The notes beneath the pieces were generated by a model, which made no database searches, was not told the origin of the DNA, and saw only the letters and a program-made list of their open reading frames with translations. From Paracoccaceae bacterium (GTDB lineage: Bacteria > Pseudomonadota > Alphaproteobacteria > Rhodobacterales > Rhodobacteraceae): a stretch of 64,000 nt of DNA. Of the stretch, positions 5,786 to 53,998 are shown in pieces. The translations under genes were made by a program, and so were the position numbers. Position 1 is the stretch's first letter. Each line of letters starts with the position of its first letter. The stretch lies in NCBI GenBank assembly GCA_027492585.1, contig JAPUEK010000054.1, positions 3,485-67,484 of the forward strand. The letters are read 5' to 3'.

Positions 5786-5862
5786 GGAACGCTCCGCGGG
5801 GGATATTTGAGAAGAGAAGAAAGCCCTTTCATACTGGCTCAAATATCCCCGCCGGAGGCTTC
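5786..5862 (+). repeat. Family A intergenic nested-hairpin repeat, copy A1 (full)
   Basis: ggaacgctccgcgggggatatttgag-aagagaagaaagccctttcatactgg-ctcaaatatccccgccggaggcttc. The arms GGGGATATTTGAG and CTCAAATATCCCC are complementary. Near-identical to the copies at 16501, 25726 (rc) and 34920 (rc). Confidence 0.9.
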
Positions 5863-5866
5863 TCCC

Positions 5867-6631
5867 TCACGACCCGAGCGCCTGCCAGATCAGGCGCAGC
5901 GCCAGCGCGGTGGAGGTCACGACGAGGAGCGGCTTGATCAGCCGCGCCCCGATCCGCAGAGCGAGCCGCGCACCCAGGGCGGCGCCTGCCGCCTGACCCA
6001 GGGCCATCGCCAGACCCGTCGCCCACCAGGTCGCGCCGGAGAAGGCGAAGACCGCGAGGCTGCCGAGGTTCGAGGCGAAGTTAAGCATCTTGGTATGGGC
6101 TGTCGCCTTCAGCACGCCGAAGCCCGCCAGCATCACGAAGGCTAGCATGAAGAAGCTGCCCGTTCCCGGCCCGAAGAAGCCGTCATAGCCGGCGGTCAGC
6201 GGGACGGCGGTGAAGGTGAAGGCGACGGGACCGAGGCGCTGCGCCCGCGCCTCGTCGGTCAGGCCCGGCTTCAGCGCGAAGAAGAGCGCCACCCCCACCA
6301 GCACCACCGGCATGATCAGCCGCAGGGCCTCGGCCGGCACGGCATGGGCGACCAGCGCGCCCGCCGCCCCGGCCAGCGCAGACACCGCCGCCATGCCGAT
6401 CTGTTCGCGCGGCCGCACCTGCCCGGCGCGCGCATAGGCCAGCACCGCGGTTCCCGAGCCGAAGCTGCCCTGGAGCTTGTTCGTCGCCAGGGCCTCCAGC
6501 GGAGAGGCGCCGGCGAGCAGCAGCACCGGCACGGTGATCAGCCCGCCGCCGCCCGCGATCGCATCGACAAAGCCCGCGACAAAAGCCGCGAGCACCAGCA
6601 GCAGCGCAAGATGGGTGGCGATTTCAAACAT
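5867..6631 (-). CDS. TSUP/TauE-SafE family anion exporter membrane protein
   Basis: 254 aa, polytopic and Gly/Ala/Leu-rich. N-terminal signature FVAGFVDAIAGGGGLITVPVLLL is typical of DUF81/TauE. Confidence 0.8.
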   Translation of the reverse strand: MFEIATHLALLLVLAAFVAGFVDAIAGGGGLITVPVLLLAGASPLEALATNKLQGSFGSGTAVLAYARAGQVRPREQIGMAAVSALAGAAGALVAHAVPAEALRLIMPVVLVGVALFFALKPGLTDEARAQRLGPVAFTFTAVPLTAGYDGFFGPGTGSFFMLAFVMLAGFGVLKATAHTKMLNFASNLGSLAVFAFSGATWWATGLAMALGQAAGAALGARLALRIGARLIKPLLVVTSTALALRLIWQALGS

Positions 6632-6710
6632 GGGCTCTCCTGTCGCTCCTCGCCGTTGTCGGGGGCGGCTCCGGCATTGTAAAGTCCCCGCGAAGCTTCA
6701 GGAGAGTGCC

Positions 6711-7175
6711 ATGCCGCCCCGCCCCTTCCGCGCCGAGGAGCCCTACGACTGGGAGGGGCTTCTGGCCCTGATCCGCAGCGAATTCGCCTATATGGACGGG
6801 CGCATCGACCCGCCGTCCTCCATGCACCGCCTGACCGCCGGGGACCTCGCCCGGCAGGCGGAGGAGGGCGAGATCTGGGTGATTGGCGCGCCGGCGCAAG
6901 CCTGCGTCGTTCTCACTCCGAAGAAGGATGCGCTTTACATCGGCAAGCTTGCGGTGGCCGGCGCGCAGCGCGGCAAGGGTCTTGCCCGCGCCCTTGTCGA
7001 GCGCGCCGAGGAGCGGGCGCGGATGCTCGGCTACCGCGAGGTGGAATTGCAGGTCCGGGTGGAGCTGGTCGAGAACCAGCAGGCCTTCGCCGCTCTCGGC
7101 TTCCGGCAGGTCGCGGCCACCGCGCATCCGGGGTATAGCCGCCCGACCTCGCTGACCTTCCGCAAGACCGTCTGA
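6711..7175 (+). CDS. GNAT family N-acetyltransferase
   Basis: ATG at 6711 is preceded by GGAGAG. The acetyl-CoA binding-like segment LAVAGAQRGKGLARALV is present. The upstream part of track ORF 6477.. is Ala/Ser/Pro-rich low complexity and overlaps the TauE gene in antisense. Confidence 0.75.
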   Translation: MPPRPFRAEEPYDWEGLLALIRSEFAYMDGRIDPPSSMHRLTAGDLARQAEEGEIWVIGAPAQACVVLTPKKDALYIGKLAVAGAQRGKGLARALVERAEERARMLGYREVELQVRVELVENQQAFAALGFRQVAATAHPGYSRPTSLTFRKTV

Positions 7176-7187
7176 CCCGGAGACCCG

Positions 7188-7739
7188 ATGGACCCGATTC
7201 TTCTGACCATTTCCGGCGCCCTGCGCGCCGCCTCCACCAACCGCAAGCTGCTGGTGGAGGTGCGCCGTCTCTTCGGCCCGCACCGCCATGTCGAGGCCGA
7301 TCTGCGGCTGCCGCTTTATGACGGCGATCTGGAGGACCTGGGCATTCCTGCCGAAGTGCAGACCCTTGCCGACCAGATCGCGGCGGCGGATGCGGTGGTG
7401 ATCTCTACCCCTGAATACAACAAGGCGCTCTCCGGCGTGCTGAAGAACGCGCTCGACTGGGTGAGCCGCACCAAGGGCAATCCCTGGCGCGACAAGCCGG
7501 TGGCCATCGTCTCGGCGGCGGGGGGCCGCGCGGGGGGAGAGCGGTCGCAGTATTCGCTGCGGCTCTGCCTGAACCCCTTCCGCCCGCGGCTTCTGCCGGG
7601 GCCGGAGGTTTTCGTCGCCAATTCCGGCGAGGCCTTCGATGCGGAGGGACGGCTGATCAACCCCCGGGCCGTCAAGGGGCTGGAGGAGCTGCTGACGCTT
7701 CTGCGGGCGGAAATCGCCCTCGCGGCGCAGGGCAGTTGA
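7188..7739 (+). CDS. NAD(P)H-dependent FMN reductase family oxidoreductase
   Basis: 183 aa. Signature ISGALRAASTNRKLL ... VISTPEYNKALSGVLKNALDW is typical of the FMN_red family. Confidence 0.8.
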   Translation: MDPILLTISGALRAASTNRKLLVEVRRLFGPHRHVEADLRLPLYDGDLEDLGIPAEVQTLADQIAAADAVVISTPEYNKALSGVLKNALDWVSRTKGNPWRDKPVAIVSAAGGRAGGERSQYSLRLCLNPFRPRLLPGPEVFVANSGEAFDAEGRLINPRAVKGLEELLTLLRAEIALAAQGS

Positions 7740-7777
7740 CCCCGGTCACAACCGGGGGCGAGGCCGACACGGCGTCC

Positions 7778-7871
7778 CTGCATTTTCTGTCGGAAAATAT
7801 CCTGCGGGGTTCGCCATCGGTTCAAGGGGCCGCTGGCACGGCGGAGGGGGCAAAACCCCTCCGGCGCTGCC
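7778..7871 (-). repeat. Family B intergenic repeat, copy B1 (long form, reverse orientation)
   Basis: Contains the hairpin ggaggggg-caaaa-cccctcc plus the ...gaaaatatcctgcgggg module. It is the reverse complement of the architecture seen at 22555 and 43565. Confidence 0.85.
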
Positions 7872-7902
7872 GAGGGGCGCAACGCAGGCCAACTGTCGGG
7901 AT

Positions 7903-8394
7903 CTAGGCCAGATAGGCGCGGAAGCTGCGGACGACGTCCTCATAGACCGCGCGCTTGAAGGGGACGATGGAGGCGACCATCTCCTCGGCGCCGATCCAGC
8001 ACCAGCTTGAGAATTCCGGGTGCTCGGTGGCGATGTTCACCTGATCGTCGCGGCCGAGATAGCGGAAGAGGAACCATTTCTGCCGCTGGCCCCGGTACTT
8101 GCCGCCCCAGACCTTGCCCAGCAGCTCGGGGGGCAGATCATAGGTCACCCAGCCATGGGTCTTGCCGATGAACGCGACAAGATCGGCGGTGACCCCGGTT
8201 TCCTCCCACAGCTCGCGCAGCGCGGCGGCGCGTGGTTTTTCGCCCTCGTCGATGCCACCCTGCGGCATCTGCCAGGCCGGCACCGGATTGTCGCGGCGCT
8301 GACCGGCAAAGATCCGGCCCTCGGCATTGATCAGCATGACCCCGACGCAGGGCCGATAGGGCAGCGAGGCGGGGTCGATCGGGGTGGCGGTCAT
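7903..8394 (-). CDS. rppH: RNA pyrophosphohydrolase (Nudix)
   Basis: 163 aa. Nudix box [24 protein letters not shown]-terminal [11 protein letters not shown] is typical of RppH. Confidence 0.9.
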
Positions 8395-8494
8395 GGCGGC
8401 GGAGCCTCCCTGGCTCGATGGGCCGGCCTTGAGGAGCCGGCTTGAGGAACGGGGCCGCCCCTTGAAGGGCGGCCCCCATCTCCGTGTGATGCCC

Positions 8495-9841
8495 TCAGGG
8501 TTTCGGCGCCACGGCGTTCAGGCCGCGCAGGATGTCGATGGCATAGGCAAGCTGGTAATCCTCGTCGCGCAGCTTGGCCGCTTCCTCGGTGCGGGCGCGC
8601 TCTTCTTCCAGAAGCTTGCGCTCGTCCTCGGTCATCGAATCATTGGTGATCGCGCCGCGCAGATCGGCTTCGGAGCGCTGGTTCGCGCTTTCCTCCGCCG
8701 CCTTGGTCTCGGTGCCTTCCTTGGTCGGGTCCACGGCAGGCTGGTTCACCACGATATCGGGCATGACGCCGAGCGACTGGATCGACCGGCCCGAGGGCGT
8801 GTAATAGCGCGCCGTCGTCAGCCGCATCGCGCCTTCGCCCTTGAGCGGGATCAGCGTCTGGACAGAGCCTTTGCCGAAGCTCTTGGTGCCGACCACGATG
8901 GCGCGGCGATGATCCTGAAGCGCCCCGGCCACGATTTCCGATGCCGAAGCGGAGCCGCCGTTGATCAGCACCACGATCGGCTTGCCCTGTGCCAGATCCC
9001 CCGGCTCGGCATTGTAACGCTCACCATCGGAGGGGTTGCGGCCGCGGGTGGAGACGATCTCGCCCTTGTCGAGGAAAGCGTCGGAGACCTTGATCGCCTG
9101 GGTCAGGAGCCCGCCGGGGTTGTTCCGCAGGTCGATGACGAAGCCGTTGATCTTGTCGATGCCGCCGGCCTCGGTGATGGATTTCTTGATGCCTTCCTCA
9201 AGCCCCGGATAGGTCTGCTCGTTGAAGCCGGTGATCCGCAGCACCGCCGTATTGCCGACGAGCCGCGATTTCACCGCAACCGTCTTGATCGTGTCGCGGA
9301 TGATCGACACGTCGAACGGATCGGCCACGCCGTCGCGGACGACGGTGATGATGATCTCCGACCCGATCGGGCCGCGCATGAGATCCACGGCGGCGTCGAG
9401 CGTCAGCCCCTGCACCGATTCACCGTTGACCTTGGTGATGAAGTCGCCGGCCTTGATCCCGGCCTTGTCGGCAGGGGTGCCGTCCATCGGCGAGATGACC
9501 TTCACGAAGCCCTCTTCCTGCGTCACCTCGATGCCCAGCCCGCCGAATTCGCCCTTGGTCTGGGTCTGCATGTCGTCGAAATCGGAGGCGTTGAGATAGC
9601 TCGAATGGGGGTCGAGCGAGGTCAGCATTCCGTTGATCGCCGCCTCGATCAGCTTCTTGCTGTCCACTTCCTCGACATACTGGGCGCGGATGCGCTCGAA
9701 GATATCACCGAAAAGGTCGAGCTGTTCATAGACGCTGGCGTTCTTGGTCGCATCCTGCGCGATCATCGGCCCGGCGATCTGGGTGGTGACGAGCACCCCG
9801 GCCAGAGTACCGCCCAAGGCGGCTGCAAGGATCTTCTTCAT
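8495..9841 (-). CDS. ctpA: carboxy-terminal processing protease (S41 peptidase)
   Basis: 448 aa. Signal/anchor at the N-terminus, PDZ region (GLGIEV...), and S41 catalytic region ([17 protein letters not shown] ... GKGSVQT). Confidence 0.9.
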
Positions 9842-9848
9842 CTGCCTG

Positions 9849-10976
9849 TCATTCCCCTGATGCGGCCGTTGCCGCGAACCATTCCAACGGGTCCACCGGA
9901 TCGGCGCCCTGCCTCAATTCCAAGTAAAGCGTTTCCGTTCCCCGGATACCACCACCATCTGCCGCCGTCGCCAGAAAGTCCGCCACTCCCGGCTCCGCCC
10001 CGCCCATCAGGCCAAGGGGGGCGCCGCGGGCGATCACCTCTCCCACCGCACCATAGACCTGTTCCATCCCGGCCAGAACCATCAGATAGCCGTCTCCCGG
10101 CTCAAGGATCATCACGTTTCCGTAGTCGAGAAGCGGCCCCGTATAGCGGATCGTCGCCGCCCAGGGGCTGGTGACGAGCGCACCGGGCCGGGTCGCCAGC
10201 GTCAGGCCCGGACGGGTGACCCCGCGGGCATCCGTCTCTCCCGGTTTCAGGATCATCCGGCCGAGCACCGGCAGGTCGAGCTTGCCCTTCGCCGCGCCGA
10301 AGGCCGTGGTGCCGGTCTGGTCGAGCGCGAGGCCCGAGGCGAATGCCTCCAGCGTATCGGCGCTTTCCAGAAGGCCCTTCAGCACCTCCGGGTCTTCGGT
10401 GAAGCGGCGCGGCAGTTCGGTGCGGTCCGACATGGCCTGGCTCAGGGCCGAGCGCGCCGCCTGCGCCGCCCCAAGGCCGCGGCCCAGCACCTCCCCCGCC
10501 GCGAGCTGGAGGGCGCGCAGATCGCGCAGCTCCGTCAACTGGCCCTTGAGCTGGTCGGCTTCCGCCTGAAGCGCCGGCGTCACCTCCGACAGGATCATGG
10601 CCGACCGCACGGTTCCCAAAGGCCCGTCCGGGTGCATCAGCAGCAGCGGGCCGGGCTGCGCCTCGATCTGGCTCAACACGCCCAGAAGCTGCGCCACCTT
10701 GTCCCGCTTGGCATTGAGCGCGGCAGTCAGTTGCGCCTCGCGCAGATCGGCCTGCCGCAACGCCTCGCGCAGGGTGGCGAGCCCTTCCTCATAGGCGCGG
10801 ATGGTGCGGGTCAGGGCCGCGATCCGGTCTTTCGCCTCGGTGGCCGCCTCAAGCGCCACCACCGCCTCCTGCAAACTCGCCGAGGCCGAAGCCGCATCCT
10901 CGGTCATGCCGGCCCGCGCCGGTCCCGCAAGGGCCAGCGCCGTGGCAAGAAGAAGGGCCGGCAGGCGCAGGATCAT
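9849..10976 (-). CDS. murein hydrolase activator EnvC-like / M23 (LytM) domain protein
   Basis: Start is set at the internal ATG (MILRLPALLLATALALAGPARA, a signal peptide). That ATG forms an ATGA overlap with the gpmI stop. Coiled-coil middle and LytM-like C-terminus. The upstream part of track ORF ..11177 overlaps gpmI. Confidence 0.8.
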   Translation of the reverse strand: MILRLPALLLATALALAGPARAGMTEDAASASASLQEAVVALEAATEAKDRIAALTRTIRAYEEGLATLREALRQADLREAQLTAALNAKRDKVAQLLGVLSQIEAQPGPLLLMHPDGPLGTVRSAMILSEVTPALQAEADQLKGQLTELRDLRALQLAAGEVLGRGLGAAQAARSALSQAMSDRTELPRRFTEDPEVLKGLLESADTLEAFASGLALDQTGTTAFGAAKGKLDLPVLGRMILKPGETDARGVTRPGLTLATRPGALVTSPWAATIRYTGPLLDYGNVMILEPGDGYLMVLAGMEQVYGAVGEVIARGAPLGLMGGAEPGVADFLATAADGGGIRGTETLYLELRQGADPVDPLEWFAATAASGE

Positions 10977-12511
10977 GGCAGCAGAAGGCTGCGCCCGGTC
11001 ATCTCCGCAGGCTGGGGCAGGCCCATCAGTTGCAGGAGCGTCGGCGCGAGATCGGCCAGCCGTCCGCCTGCCCGCAAGGGAACCCCGGCCGGACCGCCGA
11101 CAAGGATGACCGGCACCGGATTGGTCGTATGCGCCGTATGCGGCCCGCCGGTGACGGGATCGACCATCAGCTCGCAATTGCCGTGATCCGCCGTCACGAT
11201 CATCGCCCCGCCGCGCGCCTGCAAGGCCGCAAGCGCCCGGCCGAGCCCCGCATCCACCGCCTCGCAGGCCTTGATGGCGGCGGGCAGGCTGCCGGTATGG
11301 CCCACCATGTCGGGATTGGCGTAGTTGACCACGATCAGGTCATAGCCCGCCTCGATCGCCTCCACGAAACGGTCGGAAACCTCGCCCGCCGACATCTCCG
11401 GTTGCAGGTCATAGGTCGCCACCTTCGGCGATTTCGGCATGGCCCGCGCCTCGCCCTCGAACGGCACTTCGCGCCCGCCGTTCAGGAAGAAGGTGACATG
11501 GGGATATTTCTCGGTCTCGGCCAGCCGGAACTGGGTGCGCCCCTGTGCCGCCACCCATTCGCCGAGCGTGTTGACGAGGTTCCGTTTCGGGAAGGCCGTG
11601 GCCATGTAGGTGCTGTGCGCGGTCGAATATTCCACCATGCCGAGCTTCGCCGACCATTGCGGCAGCGCCCCCCGGTCGAAGCCGTCGAAGTCCGGGGCGG
11701 CCAGCGCCGCAAGGATCTCCCGCGCGCGGTCGGCGCGGAAGTTGAGGCAGAAGAGCCCGTCGCCCGCCCGCACGCCCGCATAGGTGCCGATCACCGTCGG
11801 CGCCAGAAACTCGTCCGTCTCGCCCTTGGCATAGGATTGCGCCACCGCCGCCGAGGGGGTCGCCGCCCGCCCGCCTTCGCCGCGGACGATGGCGGCCTGC
11901 GCGCGCTCCACCCGTTCCCAGCGGTTGTCGCGGTCCATCGCCCAGTAGCGGCCGATCACCGTTGCCACCCGCGCGCCCACCGGCAGCGCCACCTCCAGCG
12001 CCGCCACGAATTCCGCTGCCGAAGACGGCGCCACATCGCGCCCGTCGGTGATCGCATGAAGCCAGACCGGCACGCCCTGCGCCGTCAGCGCCCGCGCGGC
12101 GGCAAGGACGTGGTTGAGATGGCCATGCACCCCGCCATCGGAGACGACGCCGATCAGATGCGCCGCGCCATTGGCCGCCTTGACCGAGGCGCCAAAGGCC
12201 AGAACCTCGGCGTTCTGCGCGAAGGAGCCATCCTCCACCGCCAGATCAATGGCGCCAAGGTCCATCGCCACCACCCGGCCCGCGCCGATATTGGTGTGGC
12301 CGACCTCGGAATTGCCCATCTGCCCCTTCGGCAGCCCGACATCGGGGCCGAAGGTGGTCAGCGTCGCATGGGGACAGTCCGCCCAGATCCGGTTGAAATT
12401 CGGCACCTGCGCCTGTGCCGGGGCGCTGACCGCCGGATCGGCGCCGATCCCCCAGCCATCAAGGATGCAGAGCACCACCGGCTTCGGGACTTGCGGATTG
12501 GCAACGGACAT
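10973..12511 (-). CDS. gpmI: 2,3-bisphosphoglycerate-independent phosphoglycerate mutase
   Basis: 512 aa. Motifs LCILDGWG, MGNSEVGHTNIGAGR and ADHGN are typical of iPGM. Confidence 0.92.
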   Translation of the reverse strand: MSVANPQVPKPVVLCILDGWGIGADPAVSAPAQAQVPNFNRIWADCPHATLTTFGPDVGLPKGQMGNSEVGHTNIGAGRVVAMDLGAIDLAVEDGSFAQNAEVLAFGASVKAANGAAHLIGVVSDGGVHGHLNHVLAAARALTAQGVPVWLHAITDGRDVAPSSAAEFVAALEVALPVGARVATVIGRYWAMDRDNRWERVERAQAAIVRGEGGRAATPSAAVAQSYAKGETDEFLAPTVIGTYAGVRAGDGLFCLNFRADRAREILAALAAPDFDGFDRGALPQWSAKLGMVEYSTAHSTYMATAFPKRNLVNTLGEWVAAQGRTQFRLAETEKYPHVTFFLNGGREVPFEGEARAMPKSPKVATYDLQPEMSAGEVSDRFVEAIEAGYDLIVVNYANPDMVGHTGSLPAAIKACEAVDAGLGRALAALQARGGAMIVTADHGNCELMVDPVTGGPHTAHTTNPVPVILVGGPAGVPLRAGGRLADLAPTLLQLMGLPQPAEMTGRSLLLP

Positions 12512-12583
12512 GAGGCACCCCTTTCCTGAACGCTTCCGCTTCTAGCGCCGCTCTGCCAAGGGGGCAAGAAACGCCTGCGGCGC

Positions 12584-13411
12584 TCACCCTTTCGAGATCA
12601 CCCAGTCGAGCCAGCGTGTCGGCAGCACCCGCCGCGCAAAGCCCGCGATATAGGTCGGCGTGGTCACATAATAGCGCGGCTTCGGGCGCCGGTCTTCGAG
12701 CGCCCGGATCAGCTTCGCGGTCACCGCCGAGGCCGGCAGCTCGAAGCGGTCCGGCCCGCGGCTTTCGTAAAGCCGGTGGCGCAGCGCCGCATAGTCCTCG
12801 CGCCGGGCGGAGCCTTCCCAGTCGATCCATTTCTCGAAATGCGGGATGGCGTTCTCGCGGATGCGGCTGGTGACCGGCCCCGGCTCGATCAGCACGATCT
12901 CGATGCCGGTCCCCGCCATTTCCACCCGCATCACATCCGCCATCCCCTCCATGGCGAATTTGGTGGAGACATAGGCGGCCCGCCATTTCGCCCCCACGAG
13001 CCCCAGAACGGAGGAACAGTTGACGATCCGCCCCTTGCCCGCCGCCCGCATCATCGGGATCACCCGGCGCGTCAGGTCGTGGTAGCCGAAGAAATTCACC
13101 TCGAAGATCGCCCGCAAGGCCCCGCGCGGCAGATCCTCCGCCGCACCGGGGCAGGCGAAGGCCCCGTTGTTGAACAAGGCGTCGAGCCGCCCGCCAGTCC
13201 GCGCCTGCACCTCGGCGACGGCGGCTTCGATGCTCGCCTCGTCGGCATAGTCGAGAACGAAGCTTTCCAGCCCCTCGGCCTGCAATTTCTCGCAATCTGC
13301 GGCCTGACGGCAGGTGGCGAACACCCGCCAGCCCCGCGCCTTCAGCCCGCGCGCCGCATCCAGACCGATACCCGACGAACATCCCGTGATCAGAACGGTT
13401 CCGCGATCCAT
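12584..13411 (-). CDS. SDR family oxidoreductase
   Basis: 275 aa. TGCSSGIG cofactor motif, NNG, and the YxxxK region (YVSTKFA). Confidence 0.85.
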   Translation of the reverse strand: MDRGTVLITGCSSGIGLDAARGLKARGWRVFATCRQAADCEKLQAEGLESFVLDYADEASIEAAVAEVQARTGGRLDALFNNGAFACPGAAEDLPRGALRAIFEVNFFGYHDLTRRVIPMMRAAGKGRIVNCSSVLGLVGAKWRAAYVSTKFAMEGMADVMRVEMAGTGIEIVLIEPGPVTSRIRENAIPHFEKWIDWEGSARREDYAALRHRLYESRGPDRFELPASAVTAKLIRALEDRRPKPRYYVTTPTYIAGFARRVLPTRWLDWVISKG

Positions 13412-13497
13412 GCCTGCTGCCCCCCGCGCCGGCTGCTCCGGCGTCTTGGCCTACCTAAGGCGCGCAGGCGGCGGTTGCAAAGCCGAATCCGTGGGGC

Positions 13498-14004
13498 CTA
13501 TTCCGAAAGCAGCCGGGCCGCGACATAGCCTTCGACGCCGTCGCCCTCGATGCGGATCAGGGACCAGCCCTCCGGGCCTTCGCCCTCGGCGACGACCAGA
13601 ACCGCTTCGCCGCGCAAGAGACGTTCCACCACCTCATGGTCCTTGCCGGGACCGGAGCGGACATTGACGCTTTTCGCCGCGACATAGAGGATGCGTCCTG
13701 CCGGAGCCCCCGGAGCTTCCACCACCGCTTCTGCCACCGCCACCGCCGGCTCGGCAGCCACCGGCTGCGCCTCCATCAGCGGCCTGGCCGGAACGAAGCT
13801 CGCCTCGACCACGACAGGGGCCGTTCGGGGCTGGATCGCCGCAACCGCAGGCACCCCGGCCGGTTCCGGCGCCGCGACCGCCTGCAGGACCGGCGCCTCC
13901 GCCTGCGGGATCAGGCCGAAACGGAGCTGGCCATGATCCCGGCCGCCGATCAGCATCGTCAGGAAAATCGCCGCACACAAAAGGAAGGTCAACCGGAACA
14001 TCAT
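13498..14004 (-). CDS. membrane-anchored bacterial SH3 domain protein
   Basis: 168 aa. N-terminal hydrophobic anchor, Ala/Pro/Val-rich linker, and a C-terminal SH3b-like segment (VNVRSGPGKDHEVVERLLRGEAVLVV...GWSLIRI...GYVAARLL). Confidence 0.6.
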   Translation of the reverse strand: MMFRLTFLLCAAIFLTMLIGGRDHGQLRFGLIPQAEAPVLQAVAAPEPAGVPAVAAIQPRTAPVVVEASFVPARPLMEAQPVAAEPAVAVAEAVVEAPGAPAGRILYVAAKSVNVRSGPGKDHEVVERLLRGEAVLVVAEGEGPEGWSLIRIEGDGVEGYVAARLLSE

Positions 14005-14164
14005 ACGCCCTTACTGGCCGCCCCAAAAACCGGCGGCAAGTTGCCCTTAACACGATTCGCCCCGGCAACGAGTGGGAATCTCCCGCCATCTTCCCCCCTC
14101 GTGCGCTTCTGGTCCGTGATTTTTCGGGCTGGACCGGCAGGCCCCCCGGCCTTACACCACATTC

Positions 14165-16468: not shown

Positions 16469-16500
16469 GCTGTTCTGCGGCCCTGCGCCGGGGGCGGCAC

Positions 16501-16577
16501 CGGACGCTCCGCGGGGGATATTTGGGAAGAGAAGAAAGCCCTTTCATACTGGCTCAAGTATCCCCGCCGGAGGCTTC
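16501..16577 (+). repeat. Family A repeat, copy A2 (full)
   Basis: cggacgctccgcgggggatatttgggaagagaagaaagccctttcatactggctcaagtatccccgccggaggcttc. Differs from A1 at only a few positions. Confidence 0.9.
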
Positions 16578-16588
16578 CCCGGCTGCGC

Positions 16589-21139: not shown

Positions 21140-21168
21140 TTGCCTTTCATACTGGCTCAAATATCCAA
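21140..21168 (+). repeat. Family A repeat, partial copy A3 (right half only)
   Basis: cctttcatactggctcaaatatcc matches the loop and right arm of A1 and A2. The left arm is absent. Confidence 0.7.
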
Positions 21169-22554: not shown

Positions 22555-22645
22555 GGCGCCGGAGCGGTTTTGCACCGCTCCGCCCTGCCACCGATCCCCT
22601 GACCCGGTGGCAAACCCCGCAGGATCTTTTCCGAAAGGGAATGAG
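22555..22645 (+). repeat. Family B repeat, copy B2 (long form)
   Basis: Hairpin ggagcgg-ttttgca-ccgctcc, then ...ccggtggcaaaccccgcaggatcttttccgaaaggg. Colinear with the reverse complement of B1. Confidence 0.8.
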
Positions 22646-25725: not shown

Positions 25726-25803
25726 GAAGCCTCCGGCGGGGATATTTGAGGCAAGATGAAAGGGCTTTCTTCTCTTCCCAAATATCCCCCGCGGAGCGTT
25801 CCC
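25726..25803 (-). repeat. Family A repeat, copy A4 (full, reverse orientation)
   Basis: gaagcctccggcggggatatttgaggcaagatgaaagggctttcttctcttcccaaatatcccccgcggagcgttcc. This is the reverse complement of A1 with a few substitutions. Confidence 0.9.
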
Positions 25804-30542: not shown

Positions 30543-30561
30543 GGGGGTGGCGCGCCCTTGT

Positions 30562-30630
30562 CAGGCGCCGGAGGGGTTTTGCACCCCTCCGGACCTCCCC
30601 GCAGGATATTTGGGGCAAGATGAAAGGGGG
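30562..30630 (+). repeat. Family B repeat, copy B3 (short form) fused to a family A-like loop module
   Basis: caggcgccggaggggttttgcacccctccggacctccccgcaggatatttggggcaagatgaaaggggg. The first ~50 nt are essentially identical to the reverse complement of B5. The tail ggcaagatgaaaggg matches the loop of A4. Confidence 0.85.
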
Positions 30631-30653
30631 CGAGGCCGGTCCGGGGGCAGGGG

Positions 30654-34919: not shown

Positions 34920-34996
34920 GAAGCCTCCGGCGGGGATATTTGAGCCAGTATGAAAGGGCTTTCTTCTCTTTTCAAATATCCCCCGCGGAGCGTTCC
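34920..34996 (-). repeat. Family A repeat, copy A5 (full, reverse orientation)
   Basis: gaagcctccggcggggatatttgagccagtatgaaagggctttcttctcttttcaaatatcccccgcggagcgttcc. Almost exactly the reverse complement of A1. Confidence 0.9.
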
Positions 34997-43536: not shown

Positions 43537-43564
43537 GCGGCTTCGGTGGGCGGTGCGCCTCCGG

Positions 43565-43669
43565 CAGGCGCCGGAGGGGCTTTGCACCCCTCCCCCATGC
43601 CCCCGGTCCCATGAACCGATGGCGAAACCGATGGCAAACCCGCAGGATATTTCAAGACAGAAATGAAGG
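43565..43669 (+). repeat. Family B repeat, copy B4 (long form with an internal 12-nt duplication)
   Basis: caggcgccggaggggctttgcacccctcc..., then aaccgatggcga / aaccgatggcaa (tandem duplication), then acccgcaggatatttcaagacagaaatgaagg. Confidence 0.85.
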
Positions 43670-45476: not shown

Positions 45477-45490
45477 AACGGAGACAGATC

Positions 45491-46828: not shown

Positions 46829-46831
46829 GCG

Positions 46832-48022
46832 ATGCTCGACAGGCTCACCCATACGTCCGACCCGGAGGCGGCGATTGCCGAGGGGATCGCCCCCTTCCTC
46901 GCGCTGCGCCGGGATCTGCACCGCAACCCGGAGCTTTCGGGCAGCGAAAGGCGCACGGCGGGGATCATCGCCGGGCTGCTGCGCGACTGGGGTTATGAGG
47001 TCACGACCGGCATCGGCGGGCATGGCGTGGTCGGGCGGCTCTCGGCGGGGGAAGGCACGCGCAGCATCGGCTTGCGAGCCGATTTCGATGCCTTGCCCAT
47101 CGAGGAGGCGACCGGGCTCGACCATGCCTCGCAAGTTCCGGGCGTCATGCACGCCTGCGGCCATGACGGGCATACGGCGATCCTGCTGGCCGCCGCCCAT
47201 CACCTCGCCAAAACCCGCGCCTTCGATGGCACGGTGGTGCTGATCTTCCAGCCCGCCGAAGAGATCGGCGCGGGCGCGAAGGCGATGATCGCCGAGGGGA
47301 TCTTCACGCGCTTTCCGGTGGATGCGGTCTTTGCGCTGCACAATTGGCCGGGGGTGGCGGAGGGCCGCTGGGGCATCCTGCCCGGCCCGGTCATGGCGGC
47401 GATTGATCAGGTCAACCTGACCCTGCGCGGCAAGGGCGGCCATGGCGCCGCCCCGCAGGAAACCGTGGACCCGATCGTGGCCGCCGCCCATGCGATCGCC
47501 GCGCTGCAATCGGTGGTGGCGCGCAATGTCGATCCGCAGGAAACGGCGGTGGTCACGGTCGGCTCCATCCACGGCGGCAGCGCCTCCAATGTCATCCCCG
47601 AGACGGTGGAGGCGCGCCTCACGCTCCGCAGCTTCACCCCGGCGACGCGCGCGCTTCTGGCGGAACGGGTGCCGGCCATCCTGCGCGGGGTGGCCGAGGG
47701 CTTCGGCGCCAGGGCGGAGATCACGGTGAAACCGGGCTTCCCGCCGGTCGTCAACCATGCCGGCCCCGCCGCCCTTGCCCGAGAGGTCGCTCTGCGGCTC
47801 TTCGGGGCGGAGGCGGTGATCGCCGATTTCCGCCCCCGCACTGCCAGCGAGGATTTCGCCTGGATGCTGGAGGAACGGCCCGGCGCCTATCTGTTCATCG
47901 GCACGGGGCCGGGCGCCCCGCTGCACAGCCCCGAATACCGCTTCAACGACGCCATTCTGGCACCCGCCGCCGCCTTCTGGGTGCGGCTGGCCGAAACCTT
48001 CCTGACCGGAGACGCGCGATGA
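46832..48022 (+). CDS. M20 family amidohydrolase (hippurate hydrolase / N-acyl-amino-acid deacylase type)
   Basis: 396 aa. Motifs MHACGHDGH and FQPAEE, and the M20D architecture. Confidence 0.88.
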   Translation: MLDRLTHTSDPEAAIAEGIAPFLALRRDLHRNPELSGSERRTAGIIAGLLRDWGYEVTTGIGGHGVVGRLSAGEGTRSIGLRADFDALPIEEATGLDHASQVPGVMHACGHDGHTAILLAAAHHLAKTRAFDGTVVLIFQPAEEIGAGAKAMIAEGIFTRFPVDAVFALHNWPGVAEGRWGILPGPVMAAIDQVNLTLRGKGGHGAAPQETVDPIVAAAHAIAALQSVVARNVDPQETAVVTVGSIHGGSASNVIPETVEARLTLRSFTPATRALLAERVPAILRGVAEGFGARAEITVKPGFPPVVNHAGPAALAREVALRLFGAEAVIADFRPRTASEDFAWMLEERPGAYLFIGTGPGAPLHSPEYRFNDAILAPAAAFWVRLAETFLTGDAR

Positions 48023-48651
48023 CCGATCTGATCGTCGAAAGCACCCCTACCGCCCCCGAGGCGCAGCCCTTGGTCGAAGACCTGATCCGCGAATATGACG
48101 GACGCTACGGCACGCGGTTCAATCCCGAAGGCGCGCGGGCCGAGGTTTTCCGCTATCCGCCGGAGACCTTCGCGCGCCCGGACGGCAATTTCGTCCTGCT
48201 CTTGCGCGGGGGGCAAACCATCGGCGGCGGCGCCTTCATGCGGCTTGACGGCGAGACCGCCGAGTTCAAGCGCATCTGGACCGATCTGCGCTTCCGTCGT
48301 CAGGGGCTTGCCCGGCGGATCGTTCTGGCGCTTGAGGAAAAAGCGGCGGAGCAGGGCTATACCCGCGTCTATCTCACCACCGGCTTCCGGCAGCCGGAGG
48401 CAGTCGGGCTTTACCTCGGCCTAGGCTACCGCCCGCTTTTCGATCCGTCGGAAGACCCGGAGCTTTACCTCACCCTGCCGTTCGAGAAGCATATCGGCGC
48501 CCTTGCCGGAAAGCCCGGCACCAGCCCGCTGAAAGTGCCGGGCGTCTATCCGCCCGAGCTGGCCCATGCCGCGCCGAAGCGTCCGCCGCTGACGCGGGAA
48601 GCTCCGGGCGGCGGGCTGAGCCAGGTCCGGTTCGGGGGGGCGCTGTCGTGA
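48019..48651 (+). CDS. GNAT family N-acetyltransferase
   Basis: 210 aa. 4-nt overlaps with both neighbouring genes. GNAT core RFRRQGLARRIVLALEEKAAEQGY. Pro-rich C-terminal tail. Confidence 0.8.
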   Translation: MTDLIVESTPTAPEAQPLVEDLIREYDGRYGTRFNPEGARAEVFRYPPETFARPDGNFVLLLRGGQTIGGGAFMRLDGETAEFKRIWTDLRFRRQGLARRIVLALEEKAAEQGYTRVYLTTGFRQPEAVGLYLGLGYRPLFDPSEDPELYLTLPFEKHIGALAGKPGTSPLKVPGVYPPELAHAAPKRPPLTREAPGGGLSQVRFGGALS

Positions 48652-50441
48652 CCCTCACCTCGGATTTCACCACGACCACCGTCGCTCCCCGTCCCGCCCC
48701 GCAGGACCTGAGCCGCTTCCGCATCGTTCCCGCCCGCCACCCTGCCCGCACCTTCGGCACGGTCGTCGGGGTGATCCTGCTCGCTGCCCTGCTCAACTCC
48801 GTCTTCGGCAATCCGAAATGGGGCTGGGGTGTCTTTGCGGAATGGTTCTTTGCCGAGCCGGTGCTTTACGGCCTTGGCAAGACGCTGCTCTTGACCGCGC
48901 TCGGCGCTGTCTTCGGCTTCAGCCTCGGCACGGTGCTGGCGCTGGCGCGGGTCTCCTCCTCGCCGCTGCTTGTCGCGCTGAGCTGGGGGTTCATCTGGCT
49001 CTTCCGGTCGATCCCGCTGATCGTGCTGCTGCTGATCATCAACAACCTCGGCTATCTTTATGAGACCATCGGCATCGGCATCCCCTTTACCGGGATCAGT
49101 TTCCTGAGCTTTCCGACCACGCAGGCGATCACGCCGCTTCTGGCCGCCGTTCTGGGCCTGACGCTGAACATGGGGGCCTTCTCCGCCGAGATGATCCGCG
49201 GCGGCATCCTGTCGGTCGATCAGGGTCAGCACGAGGCGGCGGCGGCCCTCGGCCTGCCGAAAGGCCGTCAGGCCCGGCGCATCATCCTGCCGCAGGCGAT
49301 GCGGGCGATCCTGCCGACCGCGTTCAACGAGATCATCGGCTTGGCCAAAGGCACGTCGGTGGTCTACATCCTCGCCCTGCCGGAGCTGTTCTACACCATC
49401 CAGATCATCTACCGCCGCAATCTCGAGGTCATTCCGCTCCTGATGGTGGCGACGGTCTGGTATGTCGTCATCCTCTCGGTCCTGTCGGTGATCCAGTATT
49501 ACATCGAGCGGCACTATGCCCGCGGTGCGCTCCGCAATCCGCCTGCCGATGTGTTCCGCCTGGTGGCCGAGCGGCTGGGCCTGCTGCGTACCGCGAAACC
49601 CGCCCCGGTGGTGCAGGCCGCCCCGGCGCCCGTGCCTGCTGCGCCTCGCGTCGCGGCAAGCTGGACGGAAAGCCTGCCCAAAGGCGGCACGGTGGACATC
49701 CGCCATGTGTCGAAATCCTTCGGGCCGCTGCGGGTGCTGGACGATGTTTCCCTCACCGTGCCGTCGGGCAGCGTGACCGCGATCCTCGGGCAATCCGGCT
49801 CCGGCAAATCCACCCTGCTGCGGACCATCAACCACCTTGAGACGGTGGAGGAGGGCTTCATCGCCATCGACGGCGAGCTGGTCGGCTACCGTCAGGACGG
49901 CCACACGCTTTACGAGCTGAAGGAGCGCGAGATCCGCCGCCGCCGCGTCGATGTCGGCATGGTCTTCCAGCAGTTCAACCTTTTCCCGCATCTGACCGTG
50001 CTGGAGAACATCATCGAGGCACCGCTCGCGGTGCGCGGCCTGAGCCGCGACGAGGCGGAGCGTCTGGCGCGCGGTCTTCTCGCCCGTGTCGGGCTGTCGG
50101 ACAAGGCGGGCGCCTATCCGCGGCAGCTCTCGGGCGGCCAGCAGCAGCGCGTCGCCATCGCCCGGACCCTGGCGCTGAAGCCCAAGGTCCTGCTTTTCGA
50201 CGAACCGACATCCGCGCTCGATCCCGAGCTGGTGAACGAGGTTCTGGACGTGATCAAGGAACTGGCCCGCTCCGGCACCACCCTGATCATCGTCACCCAC
50301 GAAATCGGCTTTGCCCGTGAAGTCGCCGATACGATCGTCTTCATGGAACAGGGCCGGATCCTGGAGGTCGGCACACCGGAAAAGGTGTTCGGCCAACCGG
50401 ATCACCCGCGAACGGCGGAGTTCCTCGCCAAGGTGCTCTGA
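48648..50441 (+). CDS. amino-acid ABC transporter, fused permease + ATP-binding protein
   Basis: 597 aa. Residues ~1-292 are a polar-amino-acid-type permease (EAA-like loop GAFSAEMIRGGILSVDQGQHEAAAALGL). An Ala/Pro-rich linker is encoded at ~49524-49688. The C-terminal ATPase has Walker A GQSGSGKST, signature LSGGQQQR and Walker B LLFDEPTSALD. Confidence 0.9.
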   Translation: MTLTSDFTTTTVAPRPAPQDLSRFRIVPARHPARTFGTVVGVILLAALLNSVFGNPKWGWGVFAEWFFAEPVLYGLGKTLLLTALGAVFGFSLGTVLALARVSSSPLLVALSWGFIWLFRSIPLIVLLLIINNLGYLYETIGIGIPFTGISFLSFPTTQAITPLLAAVLGLTLNMGAFSAEMIRGGILSVDQGQHEAAAALGLPKGRQARRIILPQAMRAILPTAFNEIIGLAKGTSVVYILALPELFYTIQIIYRRNLEVIPLLMVATVWYVVILSVLSVIQYYIERHYARGALRNPPADVFRLVAERLGLLRTAKPAPVVQAAPAPVPAAPRVAASWTESLPKGGTVDIRHVSKSFGPLRVLDDVSLTVPSGSVTAILGQSGSGKSTLLRTINHLETVEEGFIAIDGELVGYRQDGHTLYELKEREIRRRRVDVGMVFQQFNLFPHLTVLENIIEAPLAVRGLSRDEAERLARGLLARVGLSDKAGAYPRQLSGGQQQRVAIARTLALKPKVLLFDEPTSALDPELVNEVLDVIKELARSGTTLIIVTHEIGFAREVADTIVFMEQGRILEVGTPEKVFGQPDHPRTAEFLAKVL

Positions 50442-50558
50442 CCGCCGATCAATCCCGAAACCGGCTTCATCCCAAAGAAGAAACCCGCCCGACCGGCGCC
50501 CCCGTGGCGACCGGACCGGGACGGGGCAACCCCAGAAACCCCCTCCCTCCTCAAGGAC

Positions 50559-51488
50559 ATGACCATGAAGACCCCATTGCGTAGCCTGATCCTCGGCGCC
50601 TTTGCCGCCCTTGCCTCCCTTCCGCTGCTGGCCGCCGAGCCGGATCTGTCACCCGAACAGCCCGGCCGCATCCGCGCCGAGAAGGTACAGGCGGCCATCG
50701 ACCTCATCCCCAAGGATTTCGCCTTCGTCACCCCCGGCAAGCTGACCGTGGCCACCAATCCCTGGCAGCTTCCCTTCGGCGTCTATGCCACCGACAACGC
50801 CACCCCCATCGGGGCGGAGCCGGATATCGCGCAACTCGTCGCCGACAGCCTCGGGCTGGAGCTGAACATCGTCGCCGTCGCCTGGGCCGACTGGCCGCTA
50901 GGCGTCGCCTCGGGCAAATATGATGCGGTGATCTCCAACGTCACGGTGACTGAGGAGCGCAAGGAGAAATTCGACTTCTCCACCTACCGGCAGGACCTTC
51001 TGGGCTTCTATGCGCCGAAGGACAGCAAGCTTGAGAAGATCGAGACGCCGAAGGATATCGCCGGTCTCAAGATCATCGTCGGCTCCGGCACCAATCAGGA
51101 GCAGATCCTTCTGAACTGGATCGAGGAGAACAAGGCAGCCAGCCTCGCGCCGACCGAACTGCTCTATTTCGACGATGAGGCGGCGCGGGATCTGGCGCTT
51201 TTCTCCGGGCGGGCGGATGCCTATTTCGGCCCGAACGCCGCCGAGGCCTACAAGAACTCCCTGCGGGACGACCGCAAGCTTCTGGGCAAATTCTCGGGCG
51301 GCTACCCGCTGACCGCCGAAATCGCGGTGACCACCCGCAAAGGCTCCGGTCTGGCAGAGGCGATCACGGCGGGTCTCAACGCCCAGATCGCCAATGGCAC
51401 CTATGGCAAGGTTCTTGCCCATTGGGGCATCGAATCCGAGGCGGTGACGGACTCCAAAACCAACCCGCCCGGCCTGCCGAAGCCCTGA
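50559..51488 (+). CDS. ABC transporter substrate-binding protein (family 3, polar amino acid type), paralog 1
   Basis: 309 aa with a signal peptide. Clearly paralogous to the next gene (shared blocks SGKYDAVISNV.VTEERK.K.DF.TYRQ, PKDIAGLKI..GSGT.QE.ILL.W, NPPGLPK). Confidence 0.88.
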   Translation: MTMKTPLRSLILGAFAALASLPLLAAEPDLSPEQPGRIRAEKVQAAIDLIPKDFAFVTPGKLTVATNPWQLPFGVYATDNATPIGAEPDIAQLVADSLGLELNIVAVAWADWPLGVASGKYDAVISNVTVTEERKEKFDFSTYRQDLLGFYAPKDSKLEKIETPKDIAGLKIIVGSGTNQEQILLNWIEENKAASLAPTELLYFDDEAARDLALFSGRADAYFGPNAAEAYKNSLRDDRKLLGKFSGGYPLTAEIAVTTRKGSGLAEAITAGLNAQIANGTYGKVLAHWGIESEAVTDSKTNPPGLPKP

Positions 51489-51548
51489 GCCAATGTCGCC
51501 CGCGGGCCGGTTCCGCGGGCGGTTTCCTCCTCCCCAGAAAGATCCGAC

Positions 51549-52511
51549 ATGCTCCCCCTTTCCTTCTCCCGCCGCCGGGGTCTGGCGCTTGGCCTCTCCG
51601 TCGTGCTGACCTCGCTTCTGCCGGGCCTTGCCGCGGCTGAAACCGCCCTGGCACCCGAGGTCAGCGGCCTTGCCGCCGAGCAGCCCGGCGCGCCGCATAC
51701 CAAACCCAATCCCGCGGCCATCGCGGCCCTGCCGGCGGGCTTCGCCTTCGTGACGCCGGGCAAGTTCACGGTTGCGGTTTCGGCCTTTGCGCCGCCCATC
51801 GCCACCCATGCCGTCGATGGCGAGACGGTGATCGGGGCGGACCCGGAAATCGCCCGGCTCATCGGCGAGGCGCTCGGGCTGGAGCTGGAACTGGTCACCG
51901 TCGCCTGGCCGGATTGGCCGCTCGGGGTCAGCTCCGGCAAATATGATGCGGTGATCTCCAATGTCGGCGTCACCGAAGAGCGCAAGCTGAAATATGATTT
52001 CGCCACCTACCGGCAGGGGCTGCACGGCTTCTATGTCGCCAAGGACAGCCCGATCCAGAGCATCGCCGAGCCGAAGGATATCGCCGGGCTGAAGATCGTC
52101 ACCGGCTCCGGCACCATTCAGGAGCGCATCCTGCTGGAATGGAACCGCCAGAACGCCGGGGCGGGTCTGGCGCCGGCGGAACTGCTGTTCTTCGACGATG
52201 ATGCGGCAGAGACGCTGGCGGTCCTGTCGGGGCGGGCCGATGCCAACTTCAACCCCAATGGCACTCAGGCGTGGAATTCGGCGATCACCGGCAAGACCCG
52301 CCGGGTCGGCACGGTCAATGCGGGCTGGCCGCTCAATGCCGATGTGGGCGTGGTGACGAAGAAGGACAGCGGCCTCGCGCCCGCCGTCGTCATCGCGCTG
52401 AACGGGATCTTTGCCGAGGGCGCCTATGCCAGGGTTCTGGAACGCTGGGGGCTTGGCGAGGAAGCCATTGCCGAAAGCCGCCTGAACCCGCCCGGCCTGC
52501 CGAAGTTCTGA
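51549..52511 (+). CDS. ABC transporter substrate-binding protein (family 3), paralog 2
   Basis: 320 aa. Signal peptide with an RRR-containing N-region. Tandem paralog of 50559..51488. Confidence 0.88.
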   Translation: MLPLSFSRRRGLALGLSVVLTSLLPGLAAAETALAPEVSGLAAEQPGAPHTKPNPAAIAALPAGFAFVTPGKFTVAVSAFAPPIATHAVDGETVIGADPEIARLIGEALGLELELVTVAWPDWPLGVSSGKYDAVISNVGVTEERKLKYDFATYRQGLHGFYVAKDSPIQSIAEPKDIAGLKIVTGSGTIQERILLEWNRQNAGAGLAPAELLFFDDDAAETLAVLSGRADANFNPNGTQAWNSAITGKTRRVGTVNAGWPLNADVGVVTKKDSGLAPAVVIALNGIFAEGAYARVLERWGLGEEAIAESRLNPPGLPKF

Positions 52512-52518
52512 GGCCGCG

Positions 52519-53541
52519 ATGAGCTATTCCTTCACACAGGTCGGTTTTCTCATCCCCGGAAATTTCGCGGAGGACGATCCGCTCCGCGGGCTTGAGGACA
52601 CGCTCGACATCATCGCGCGCGGCGAGGATCTGGGTTACTCCTCCGCCTGGGTCCGCCAGCGGCATCTGGAACGGGGCGTCTCCTCCGCCTCGGCCTTCCT
52701 CGGGGCGGCGAGCCAGCGGACGACGCGCATCGGGCTTGGTACGGCGGTCATCCCGCTCGGCTATGAAAACCCGTTCCGGCTGGCCGAGGATCTGGCGACG
52801 GTGGATGTGCTGTCACGCGGGCGGCTGAACATCGGGGTCAGCGCGAACCCGCCCCAGTTCGGCGCGCTGCTCGGCGATCTCCTTTATGATGGCGACCCGG
52901 CGGGCAACGACTACAGCCACGCCCGCGCCGAGCGGTTTGCCCGCGCCCTGCGGTCCGAGCCCTTGTCGGACAGGGCCGAGGCGGGCAATGCCGCAGGCGC
53001 GCAGGTTCCGCGCCTGCAACCGATCGCCAGGGGGCTGACGGAACGGCTCTGGTATGGCGGCGGTTCGCTGAAATCGGCGGAATGGTCCGGGCGCAACGGC
53101 TGGCACATGCTGACCGGCAATATCGTGACCGGCGAGGGGACCGATGATTTCCTGACCGCGCAGGGGGCGCTCATCGACCGCTTCCTTGGCCATTGGCACG
53201 GGGTGGGCGCACCGCGCATCGCCCTTGGCCGGGTGATCCTGCCGACCGACAGCGCCAGCCCCGTGCAGCGCCGCCGCTACCGCGACTACGTTGCAGCGCG
53301 CAGCCCGCGCACCCTTGGCCCGCAGGGGCCGAAACGCACCCTCTTCGGGGCGGATATCGTCGGCTCGCTCGACGAGATCCTTGAAACGCTGGCACGCGAT
53401 CCCATCGCCACCCGCGTGTCGGAGTTCCGGCTGGAGCTGCCCTATGACTTCCCCCACGAGGATTATGTTCAGATCGTCGAGGATTTCGCCCGCCTTCTGC
53501 CCGTGATCCGACCGGCTGCGCTGCCGCGCACCGGAACCTGA
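52519..53541 (+). CDS. LLM-class flavin-dependent oxidoreductase
   Basis: 340 aa. Luciferase-like TIM-barrel signature (LGYSSAWVRQRH, RIGLGTAVIPLGYENPFRLAEDLATVDVLSRGRLNIGV). Confidence 0.8.
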   Translation: MSYSFTQVGFLIPGNFAEDDPLRGLEDTLDIIARGEDLGYSSAWVRQRHLERGVSSASAFLGAASQRTTRIGLGTAVIPLGYENPFRLAEDLATVDVLSRGRLNIGVSANPPQFGALLGDLLYDGDPAGNDYSHARAERFARALRSEPLSDRAEAGNAAGAQVPRLQPIARGLTERLWYGGGSLKSAEWSGRNGWHMLTGNIVTGEGTDDFLTAQGALIDRFLGHWHGVGAPRIALGRVILPTDSASPVQRRRYRDYVAARSPRTLGPQGPKRTLFGADIVGSLDEILETLARDPIATRVSEFRLELPYDFPHEDYVQIVEDFARLLPVIRPAALPRTGT

Positions 53542-53550
53542 CCCAAGGAG

Positions 53551-53907
53551 ATGACCATGACGACACCAGCCAAGACCCGGATCGACGGGCAGACCGCCCT
53601 TGCCGCCTGGCGCGAGGGGGCGATCCTGATCGACGTGCGCTCCGAACAGGGGCGGAGCAAGAATGGCGAGGTCCAGGGCGCGATCATCGTCGCCAAAAGC
53701 GACGTGGTCGATGTCGTGACCCGCAGGCTCCGGGGACGGTCCTCCGCCCAGCCGGTGATCCTTTTCTGCGGTTCCGTCGCCGGCACCGCACCGCTGATCG
53801 AGGCGCTCGTCGCGGCGGGCGAAACCGCGGTGGCCGATGTCGAAGGCGGGGTCGCCGCCCTGACCGGAGAGAACGGCCTCGCCGTGGTGCAGGCGGTTCC
53901 GGCCTGA
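53551..53907 (+). CDS. rhodanese-like domain protein
   Basis: 118 aa. LIDVRSE...G.I.GA and the active-site loop candidate ILFCGSVAGT. Confidence 0.7.
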   Translation: MTMTTPAKTRIDGQTALAAWREGAILIDVRSEQGRSKNGEVQGAIIVAKSDVVDVVTRRLRGRSSAQPVILFCGSVAGTAPLIEALVAAGETAVADVEGGVAALTGENGLAVVQAVPA

Positions 53908-53946
53908 GCGCGCCCCTGCGCGGGCTCTTCCCTCCATCCACTGTGC

Positions 53947-53998
53947 ATAAATATCCTGCGGGGAGGTCCGGAGGGGTGCAAAACCCCTCCGGCGCCTG
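53947..53998 (-). repeat. Family B repeat, copy B5 (short form, reverse orientation)
   Basis: ataaatatcctgcggggaggtccggaggggtgcaaaacccctccggcgcctg. Its reverse complement is almost identical to the first ~50 nt of B3. Confidence 0.9.

Follow-up and report, generated by a model that had tools for sequence, protein, structure and literature searches.

Why should a short hairpin repeat stand at every point in one stretch of DNA where two genes meet end to end? The stretch in question is a window of 64,000 nucleotides (nt) from a Paracoccaceae bacterium (assembly GCA_027492585.1, contig JAPUEK010000054.1, positions 3,485 to 67,484), and the initial annotation, made from the letters of the window alone, had described in it two related hairpin repeats, A and B, which occupied all of its convergent gene junctions and none of its divergent ones, and which were interpreted as a system resembling repetitive extragenic palindromes (REPs) and bacterial interspersed mosaic elements (BIMEs). 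It is probable, on the evidence given below, that A and B are the two architectures of a single REP/BIME-like family of mosaic repeats in the Rhodobacteraceae/Paracoccaceae, and that this family is independent of a REP-associated tyrosine transposase (RAYT). The window is an extreme case of a statistical tendency that runs through the genome, and the placement of the repeats follows no strict rule.

Genes were called from codon log-likelihoods trained on the genome, evaluated against a mixture null of the five wrong frames and assembled by weighted-interval scheduling (dynamic programming); doubtful calls in the window were checked with Pfam and with lists of open reading frames (ORFs), by which the serB, GNAT, phnA and DUF1428 genes were confirmed. 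These calls place eight convergent and eight divergent junctions in the window, the convergent ones at 5607/5867, 7739/7903, 16468/16589, 20949/21194, 22345/22673, 25701/25826, 30542/30654 and 53907/54028. A repeat is present in all eight convergent spacers and in none of the eight divergent spacers; both claims of the initial annotation are thus borne out by gene calls and repeat search, with the qualification that one of the eight copies, A3, is only a 24-nt remnant and that the core of another, B2, is degenerate. Two further copies, A5 and B4, lie in co-directional spacers as described, each just 3' of a stop codon. The repeat search showed A1, A2, A4 and A5 to be near-identical over approximately 78-87 nt, with A4 and A5 inverted, and the members of the second set, B1, B2, B3, B4 and B5, to be unified by the hairpin GGAGGGGTTTTGCACCCCTCC. 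Common to both sets is the core word GGATATTT, which occurs 13 times in the window, compared to 0.41 occurrences expected from shuffled sequence.

The genome from which the window is taken (labelled G000) is a draft assembly of 4.14 Mb in 100 contigs, with 66% G+C and a completeness of 99%. It contains 573 sites of GGATATTT, 532 of which are intergenic, and approximately 486 repeat loci, made up of 119 B elements, 66 A elements, 60 solo Y units, 21 solo hairpins, 144 solitary cores and a few other dimers (the units are defined below). Base composition alone would be expected to give approximately 22 sites of the core word in the genome, so that chance matches must be present among the 144 solitary cores, of which 35 are intragenic. 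A genome scan with nhmmer returned approximately 80 full A copies and approximately 170 hairpins, and the 25-nt hairpin of B was recovered in 128 copies with at most one mismatch, all of them intergenic, which is the operational mark of a REP. Copies within the genome are near-identical, and their density is roughly one locus per 8.5 kb; the copy number is an underestimate, since 32 of the 200 contig ends (16%) stop inside a hairpin or unit, compared to 1.3% of random windows.

Tabulation of these loci by junction type revealed a strongly non-random placement. Repeats occupy 167 of 509 convergent spacers (33%; 1.96 loci per kb of spacer), 212 of 2740 co-directional spacers (7.7%; 0.70 loci per kb) and 29 of 520 divergent spacers (5.6%; 0.23 loci per kb); convergent and divergent occupancy differ with a Fisher p of 1e-30, and locus counts set against spacer length give a chi-square p of 9e-45. 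The ratio of convergent to co-directional to divergent loci is 60:50:2 for B (54%, 45% and 2%) and 36:20:9 for A. Within co-directional spacers, B lies nearer the upstream stop codon in 44 of 50 cases, and where its hairpin side faces the stop the hairpin starts 15-45 nt 3' of that codon; relative to the flanking genes it points with them in 25 cases and against them in 25, in agreement with the earlier statement that both orientations are used. The convergent excess reported for the window therefore holds across the genome, whereas divergent spacers are not wholly free of repeats: 22 loci could be assigned to them with confidence, all but one flanked by well-scoring genes on both sides. Among 148 sliding sets, each of eight convergent junctions, none is as extreme as the window with its run of eight occupied; two to three is the typical value.

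Alignment on GGATATTT revealed the building block of both repeats, an asymmetric unit of approximately 45 nt in which an invariant head, closed by GGATATTT, is followed by a tail cassette of variable sequence that terminates in ATGAAAG. Three heads were distinguished, X (ACGCTCCGCGGGGGATATTT), Y (GCCTCCGGCGGGGATATTT) and Z (ACCTCCCCGCAGGATATTT), and examples of the tail cassettes are GAGGCAAGATGAAAG, GAGAAGAGAAGAAAG, GAGGCAAGATG, GAGAAGAGAAG, GAGCCAGTATG, ATGCACAGTGG and TCCGACAGAAAATG. A is a tail-to-tail inverted dimer, X> <Y, of 73-78 nt; the 64 copies that were aligned are almost without variation from -14 to +58 relative to the first core and share fully (100%) conserved heads, whereas their inner cassettes differ. 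The X> <Y dimers draw on three to five alternative cassettes and are, like BIMEs, mosaics of units in alternating orientation with few types of linker. B consists of a species-specific GC hairpin (CCGGAGGGG-TTTTGCA-CCCCTCCGG; consensus with flanks, GCGGGCG-CCGGAGGGGTTTTGCACCCCTCCGG-ACCTCC) and then one Z unit, sometimes with a middle module of 30-45 nt; a weaker module, in which ATCGACATTCGG precedes a small GC hairpin, is often found upstream of B and sometimes also downstream, inverted. A and B, described initially as related, are both mosaics of this one asymmetric unit around the core word.

A is predicted to fold, on either strand, into a long nested hairpin (-38 kcal/mol, z = -4.7); in B the stem is extended by pairing between CCCCGC in the Z head and the stretch that lies 5' of the hairpin. 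Within this genome, the copies of the hairpin show few compensatory changes (9, 3 and 1 double changes, fewer than the broken pairs), which therefore say little. Between genera the hairpin stem is kept while its sequence differs, as CCGGGGG/CCCCCGG, GCGGGGG/CCCCCGC, CTGGGGG/CCCCCAG or CCGGAGGG/CCCTCCGG.

Among the inverted dimers of the window, A1 (5786..5862, plus strand) has its X arm and Y arm tail to tail between pbpC and the TauE gene, A2 (16501..16577, plus) lies between parC and the GNAT gene, and A4 (25726..25803, minus), in the orientation opposite to A1, lies between the thiolase and CoA-transferase genes, all three at convergent junctions; A5 (34920..34996, minus) is found in a co-directional spacer, 20 nt 3' of the stop codon of a winged helix-turn-helix gene. 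The remnant A3 (21143..21166, minus) retains one unit arm (tail plus AAATATCC) between the convergent serA and DUF1428 genes. The long form of B, in which GC hairpin, middle module and one unit follow each other, is represented by B1 (7778..7899, minus), between the convergent FMN reductase gene and rppH; by B2 (22555..22645, plus), between convergent phosphatase and MFS genes, with GGATCTTT as its degenerate core; and by B4 (43545..43655, plus), in a co-directional spacer directly 3' of the stop codon of the nucleoside hydrolase gene. The short form, hairpin GGAGGGGTTTTGCACCCCTCC plus one unit, is found at B3 (30545..30632, plus), between the convergent alkB-like gene and phnA, where the unit has the tail GGGGCAAGATGAAAGG and the upstream module overlaps the stop codon, and at B5 (53945..54025, minus), between the convergent rhodanese and flavin reductase genes.

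Comparison with the sister genome, G001, showed some sites to be occupied in both species and others to be empty there. G001 has elements at the orthologues of the A1, A2 and A5 sites, with its own cassettes, AAGGACAGAAAATG and GGGCCAAGATGAAAG, and the dimer at the A1 site is Y-Y there as opposed to X-Y here; A-like dimers in G001 show approximately 80% identity. The presence of each genome's own cassettes at orthologous sites implies either homogenisation within the genome or repeated replacement at the same sites. The B1 site is empty in G001, where the FMN reductase gene and rppH abut or overlap, as is the B2 site, where the spacer measures approximately 13 nt, and B3, B4 and B5 sit at synteny breaks with G001. 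The B hairpin is private to the species, with 128 copies here and none in 40 relatives, G001 included.

The A copies also coincide with a rearrangement. The thiolase gene is the convergent neighbour of pbpC in G001 and in five outgroup genera; here, a 20-kb segment running from TauE to thiolase (window 5607-25825) is inverted, with A1 and A4, which are inverted relative to each other, exactly at its left and right ends. Since the pbpC/thiolase spacer already holds a unit in two outgroups, recombination between inverted copies is the simplest account of the 20-kb inversion, and the copies mark, and probably mediate, rearrangements of this kind. In the sister genome the convergent pbpC/thiolase spacer (G001:C11:188765-188875) contains degenerate tandem AAGATCG-like units in place of an A element.

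A second region of disrupted synteny with G001 extends over approximately 17 kb (43537-60430), with B4 and B5 at the breakpoints. An LLM/ABC transporter operon at 44.5-53.9 kb has no match in G001, and the segment from 54.0 to 60.4 kb has its counterpart on another G001 contig. Two adjacent paralogues of the operon (50559-51488 and 51549-52511), approximately 75% identical over 300 nt (region 50691-52094), are probably tandem substrate-binding proteins, and the approximately 800 nt that lie 3' of B4 and upstream of the LLM-type oxidoreductase gene (43656-44468) contain no credible ORF or Rfam match.

Beyond the sister genome, the nearest genera by serA protein are Tabrizicola, Cypionkella, Pseudorhodobacter and Gemmobacter (Rhodobacterales/Paracoccaceae). 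The unit pattern TTTCAT-NN-T-N5-AAATATCC was found in 26 of 201 sampled genera of the family, with no matches to reversed-pattern controls; it occurs 178 times here and up to 63 times elsewhere, and the cassette is particular to each genus. The 22-nt Y head has exact matches in several other genera, and the X and Y heads are identical in G191, G001 and the genome studied here. G191 and G208 carry X, Y and hairpin-plus-Z forms as well as tail-to-tail dimers, and also head-to-head dimers.

In their behaviour the elements support the REP/BIME-like interpretation of the initial annotation: they are high-copy, extragenic, mosaic palindromes of species-specific consensus, biased towards 3' ends, neutral in orientation and free of a U-tract. 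REPs of Escherichia coli are distributed approximately 60% to convergent, 40% to tandem and 1% to divergent spacers, occupy approximately 30% of convergent spacers, and act as context-dependent partial terminators and decay blocks (bioRxiv 10.64898/2026.03.23.713779). The junction bias is nearly equal here (54/45/2% for B, with 33% of convergent spacers filled by all loci together), and as E. coli REPs show the same bias it is a known behaviour and no new principle. Like the REPs and BIMEs of E. coli, the present elements are abundant extragenic imperfect palindromes without a U-tract and form mosaics of units in alternating orientation with variable linkers. They differ in that there is no sequence similarity, the unit here being longer and asymmetric with an AT-rich core inside the stem; in that the head is conserved over many genera, whereas a REP consensus is usually species-specific; and in the matter of the transposase.

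The initial annotation had suggested that a RAYT be sought elsewhere in the genome. Searches for a Y1/RAYT transposase (Y1_Tnp, PF01797) found none, either here or in 20 relatives from the family, 11 of them with the unit, whereas the controls were positive in 6 of 14 reference genomes. The elements are therefore not a REPIN-RAYT system of the type known from Pseudomonas and others, which is defined by a single-copy Y1 transposase, even though they share with such systems the inverted doublets of a short palindromic unit, the near-identity of copies within a genome and an apparently vertical inheritance with lineage-specific variants. The hairpin consensus also lacks the GTAG or CTAC of the GTAG REPs. 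By their description, the Rhizobium-specific intergenic mosaic elements (RIMEs), Correia elements and repeats resembling miniature inverted-repeat transposable elements (MITEs) are comparable, being intergenic mosaics with large palindromes in tens to hundreds of copies that serve as recombination substrates. Correia elements carry TA duplications and IHF sites; in this comparison by description, no duplication and no sequence relation to RIMEs or Correia elements was found here.

The CGTC-tagged REPs of alphaproteobacteria have stems of 8-9 bp that start with AT, loops of 4-5 nt, a terminal CGTC, TGTC or CCTC and a CCA tail (Di Nocera et al. 2013, PMC3733652). Like the present elements they are alphaproteobacterial, often dimeric and without a known dedicated transposase, and most of them are found between ORFs that are unidirectional or convergent (PMC3733652). 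The hairpin described here differs from theirs in its CCGG (G+C) foot, its GGCG and ACC flanks and the additional GGATATTT unit; the heads do carry CCTC or CGCTC at their outer edge, but the rest of the tagged pattern is missing. The text and supplements of that study include no Rhodobacter or Paracoccus species and list Ruegeria pomeroyi once. Membership in the RAYT-linked or tagged REP families is not supported. No Rfam family corresponds to the elements, permissive scans of B3 and A4 having given chance-level matches only, and with nothing specific in the searchable literature the family seems to be undescribed. The only Rfam match at gathering score in the window is a serC leader (RF00517, 66 bits) at 18046-18097, upstream of serC.

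The patterns of sequence described above suggest how such a population might be maintained. Units would be copied or homogenised inside each genome by a route independent of RAYT, possibly by an enzyme that reads the invariant head or by gene conversion, and copies would persist where a hairpin of 80-120 nt does not separate a promoter from its gene. Such sites would be found 3' of the gene that closes a transcription unit, and most of all in convergent spacers, which are bordered by a 3' end on each side. Persisting copies would probably be transcribed into 3' untranslated regions and act there as REPs do, as partial terminators or as blocks to 3' exonucleases; by analogy with E. coli, this is the most likely working mode of the elements here. 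As a tentative suggestion, the invariant 19-nt head may be the recognition signal of a conserved, non-RAYT machinery of the Rhodobacteraceae that copies or homogenises the units.

Several points weigh against this account of a RAYT-independent repeat family. The junction types were assigned with a custom gene caller and no curated annotation. In G191 (13 of 17) and G208 (10 of 18) the units are mostly co-directional, some of them 11-16 nt from a start codon, so that the strong convergent bias is a feature of the expansions in this genome, particularly that of B, rather than of the family as a whole. A GC hairpin with its unit recurs 3' of serA, at one position and in one orientation, in at least 15 genera, as would be expected of a selected function more than of a selfish insert. 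Genera whose serA proteins are 10-20% apart have an identical head, which needs either selection or a conserved reader. Finally, no mobilising enzyme or mechanism emerged, and copying or homogenisation is a reading of the sequences themselves.

The A3 remnant is a leftover of this conserved post-serA unit-plus-hairpin copy, whose position and orientation it shares. Adjoining A3, three to four tandem TTCAGGCCCCCGA units lie 3' of serA (21007-21060). The post-serA spacer of most related genera compared (Tabrizicola, Cypionkella, Pseudorhodobacter and others) lacks the DUF1428 gene, which here lies beyond A3 (21194-21547, minus strand); that of G001 contains an apparently similar minus-strand ORF.

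An alternative is that the elements are dedicated 3'-end devices under selection, bidirectional terminators or decay blocks that replace the hairpin-plus-U-tract terminator in this genome of high G+C, and that this function drives their spread. Canonical T-tract terminators are indeed rare here: a strict hairpin-plus-TTTT predictor, which replaced a first, loose one that had called half of the divergent spacers positive, found them at 22.8% of gene ends in free convergent spacers and at 14.4% in occupied ones, with a background of 5-6% (Fisher p = 0.005), a modest indication that terminators are in part replaced by the repeats. At window positions 5000-24999 no convergent junction carries a terminator-like site, and the count of such sites equals the shuffle expectation. 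The hairpins are strong, the one after serA is followed by CCTTT or CTTTT in many genera, and partial termination and decay blocking are reported for the REPs of E. coli (bioRxiv 10.64898/2026.03.23.713779). The copies of this genome, however, have no U-tract after A or B, the absence of any 3' T-run having been correctly noted at the outset, and both this and the 25:25 orientation set them apart from intrinsic terminators. The unit is missing from approximately 87% of the sampled genera, two thirds of convergent spacers have no repeat, 22 loci lie in divergent spacers, and in other genera some copies stand only a few nt before start codons. Equal use of both orientations by an asymmetric unit, the lack of that unit in most genera and in two thirds of convergent spacers, and the divergent loci argue against a dedicated terminator and fit tolerance at 3' ends; we regard such a device as unlikely.

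It is also rather doubtful that the invariant head is the binding site of some conserved DNA-binding protein of the host, such as gyrase or one of the nucleoid proteins, at places where convergent transcription piles up positive supercoils. E. coli BIMEs bind gyrase and IHF, and the elements here are enriched between convergent genes; the heads are completely conserved in the 64 A copies while the interior varies, they are identical across genera, and independence of orientation fits recognition of DNA rather than RNA. On the other hand, the head fits none of the consensus sequences of IHF, CtrA and Fur and the unit none of those of IHF, CtrA and RpoH, the convergent bias is lacking in G191, and absence of the family from most genera would be odd for a housekeeping site.

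Mobility by transposition was considered from several sides. No target-site duplication was found when direct repeats of 2-9 nt were scanned at all boundary offsets of the 64 A copies, matches occurring only inside the conserved element. ORFs starting from the ATGAAA of the unit included no transposase and comprised only housekeeping genes and antisense-strand artefacts of high G+C; the 29 genes flanked by units on both sides are likewise all housekeeping genes with no transposase among them, a collapsed insertion sequence (IS) being conceivable in a draft assembly. The PLSDB plasmids contained no match to the A consensus. That the elements are MITEs, internally deleted IS derivatives moved by the transposase of the parent element, is accordingly very unlikely: the inverted arms of the dimers, the near-identical copies, the patchy distribution among genera with its bursts, and an inversion flanked by inverted copies, which intramolecular replicative transposition would also give, are in keeping with it, but a duplication is absent at every boundary tested, no long ORF of transposase character begins at a unit or lies between units, the single-unit and hairpin-plus-unit forms carry one arm only, and plain homologous recombination explains the inversion, given the unit already present in the pbpC/thiolase spacer of two outgroups.

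Two further candidates were rejected. A sigma-70 promoter-like motif, TTGAGA-17-CATACT, lies at 5807-5835 in A1, from X tail to Y tail; with one match per 20 kb, below the shuffle mean of 1.8, and with other cassette variants devoid of the motif, it is probably a chance match. DNA uptake sequences were ruled out, as the units are almost wholly intergenic and far too few.

As a probable RAYT-independent REP/BIME-like family, the repeat is among the densest features of this genome and breaks the assembly at 16% of contig ends, and its units are worth masking or modelling in the annotation of Rhodobacteraceae spacers and in searches for small RNAs or terminators. If a head-reading machinery does exist, it would explain both the species' own cassettes at orthologous sites and the hundreds of near-identical copies without a transposase. 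The family offers a natural case of a REP-like population without RAYT, in which the head shared across genera is a handle on what maintains such repeats.

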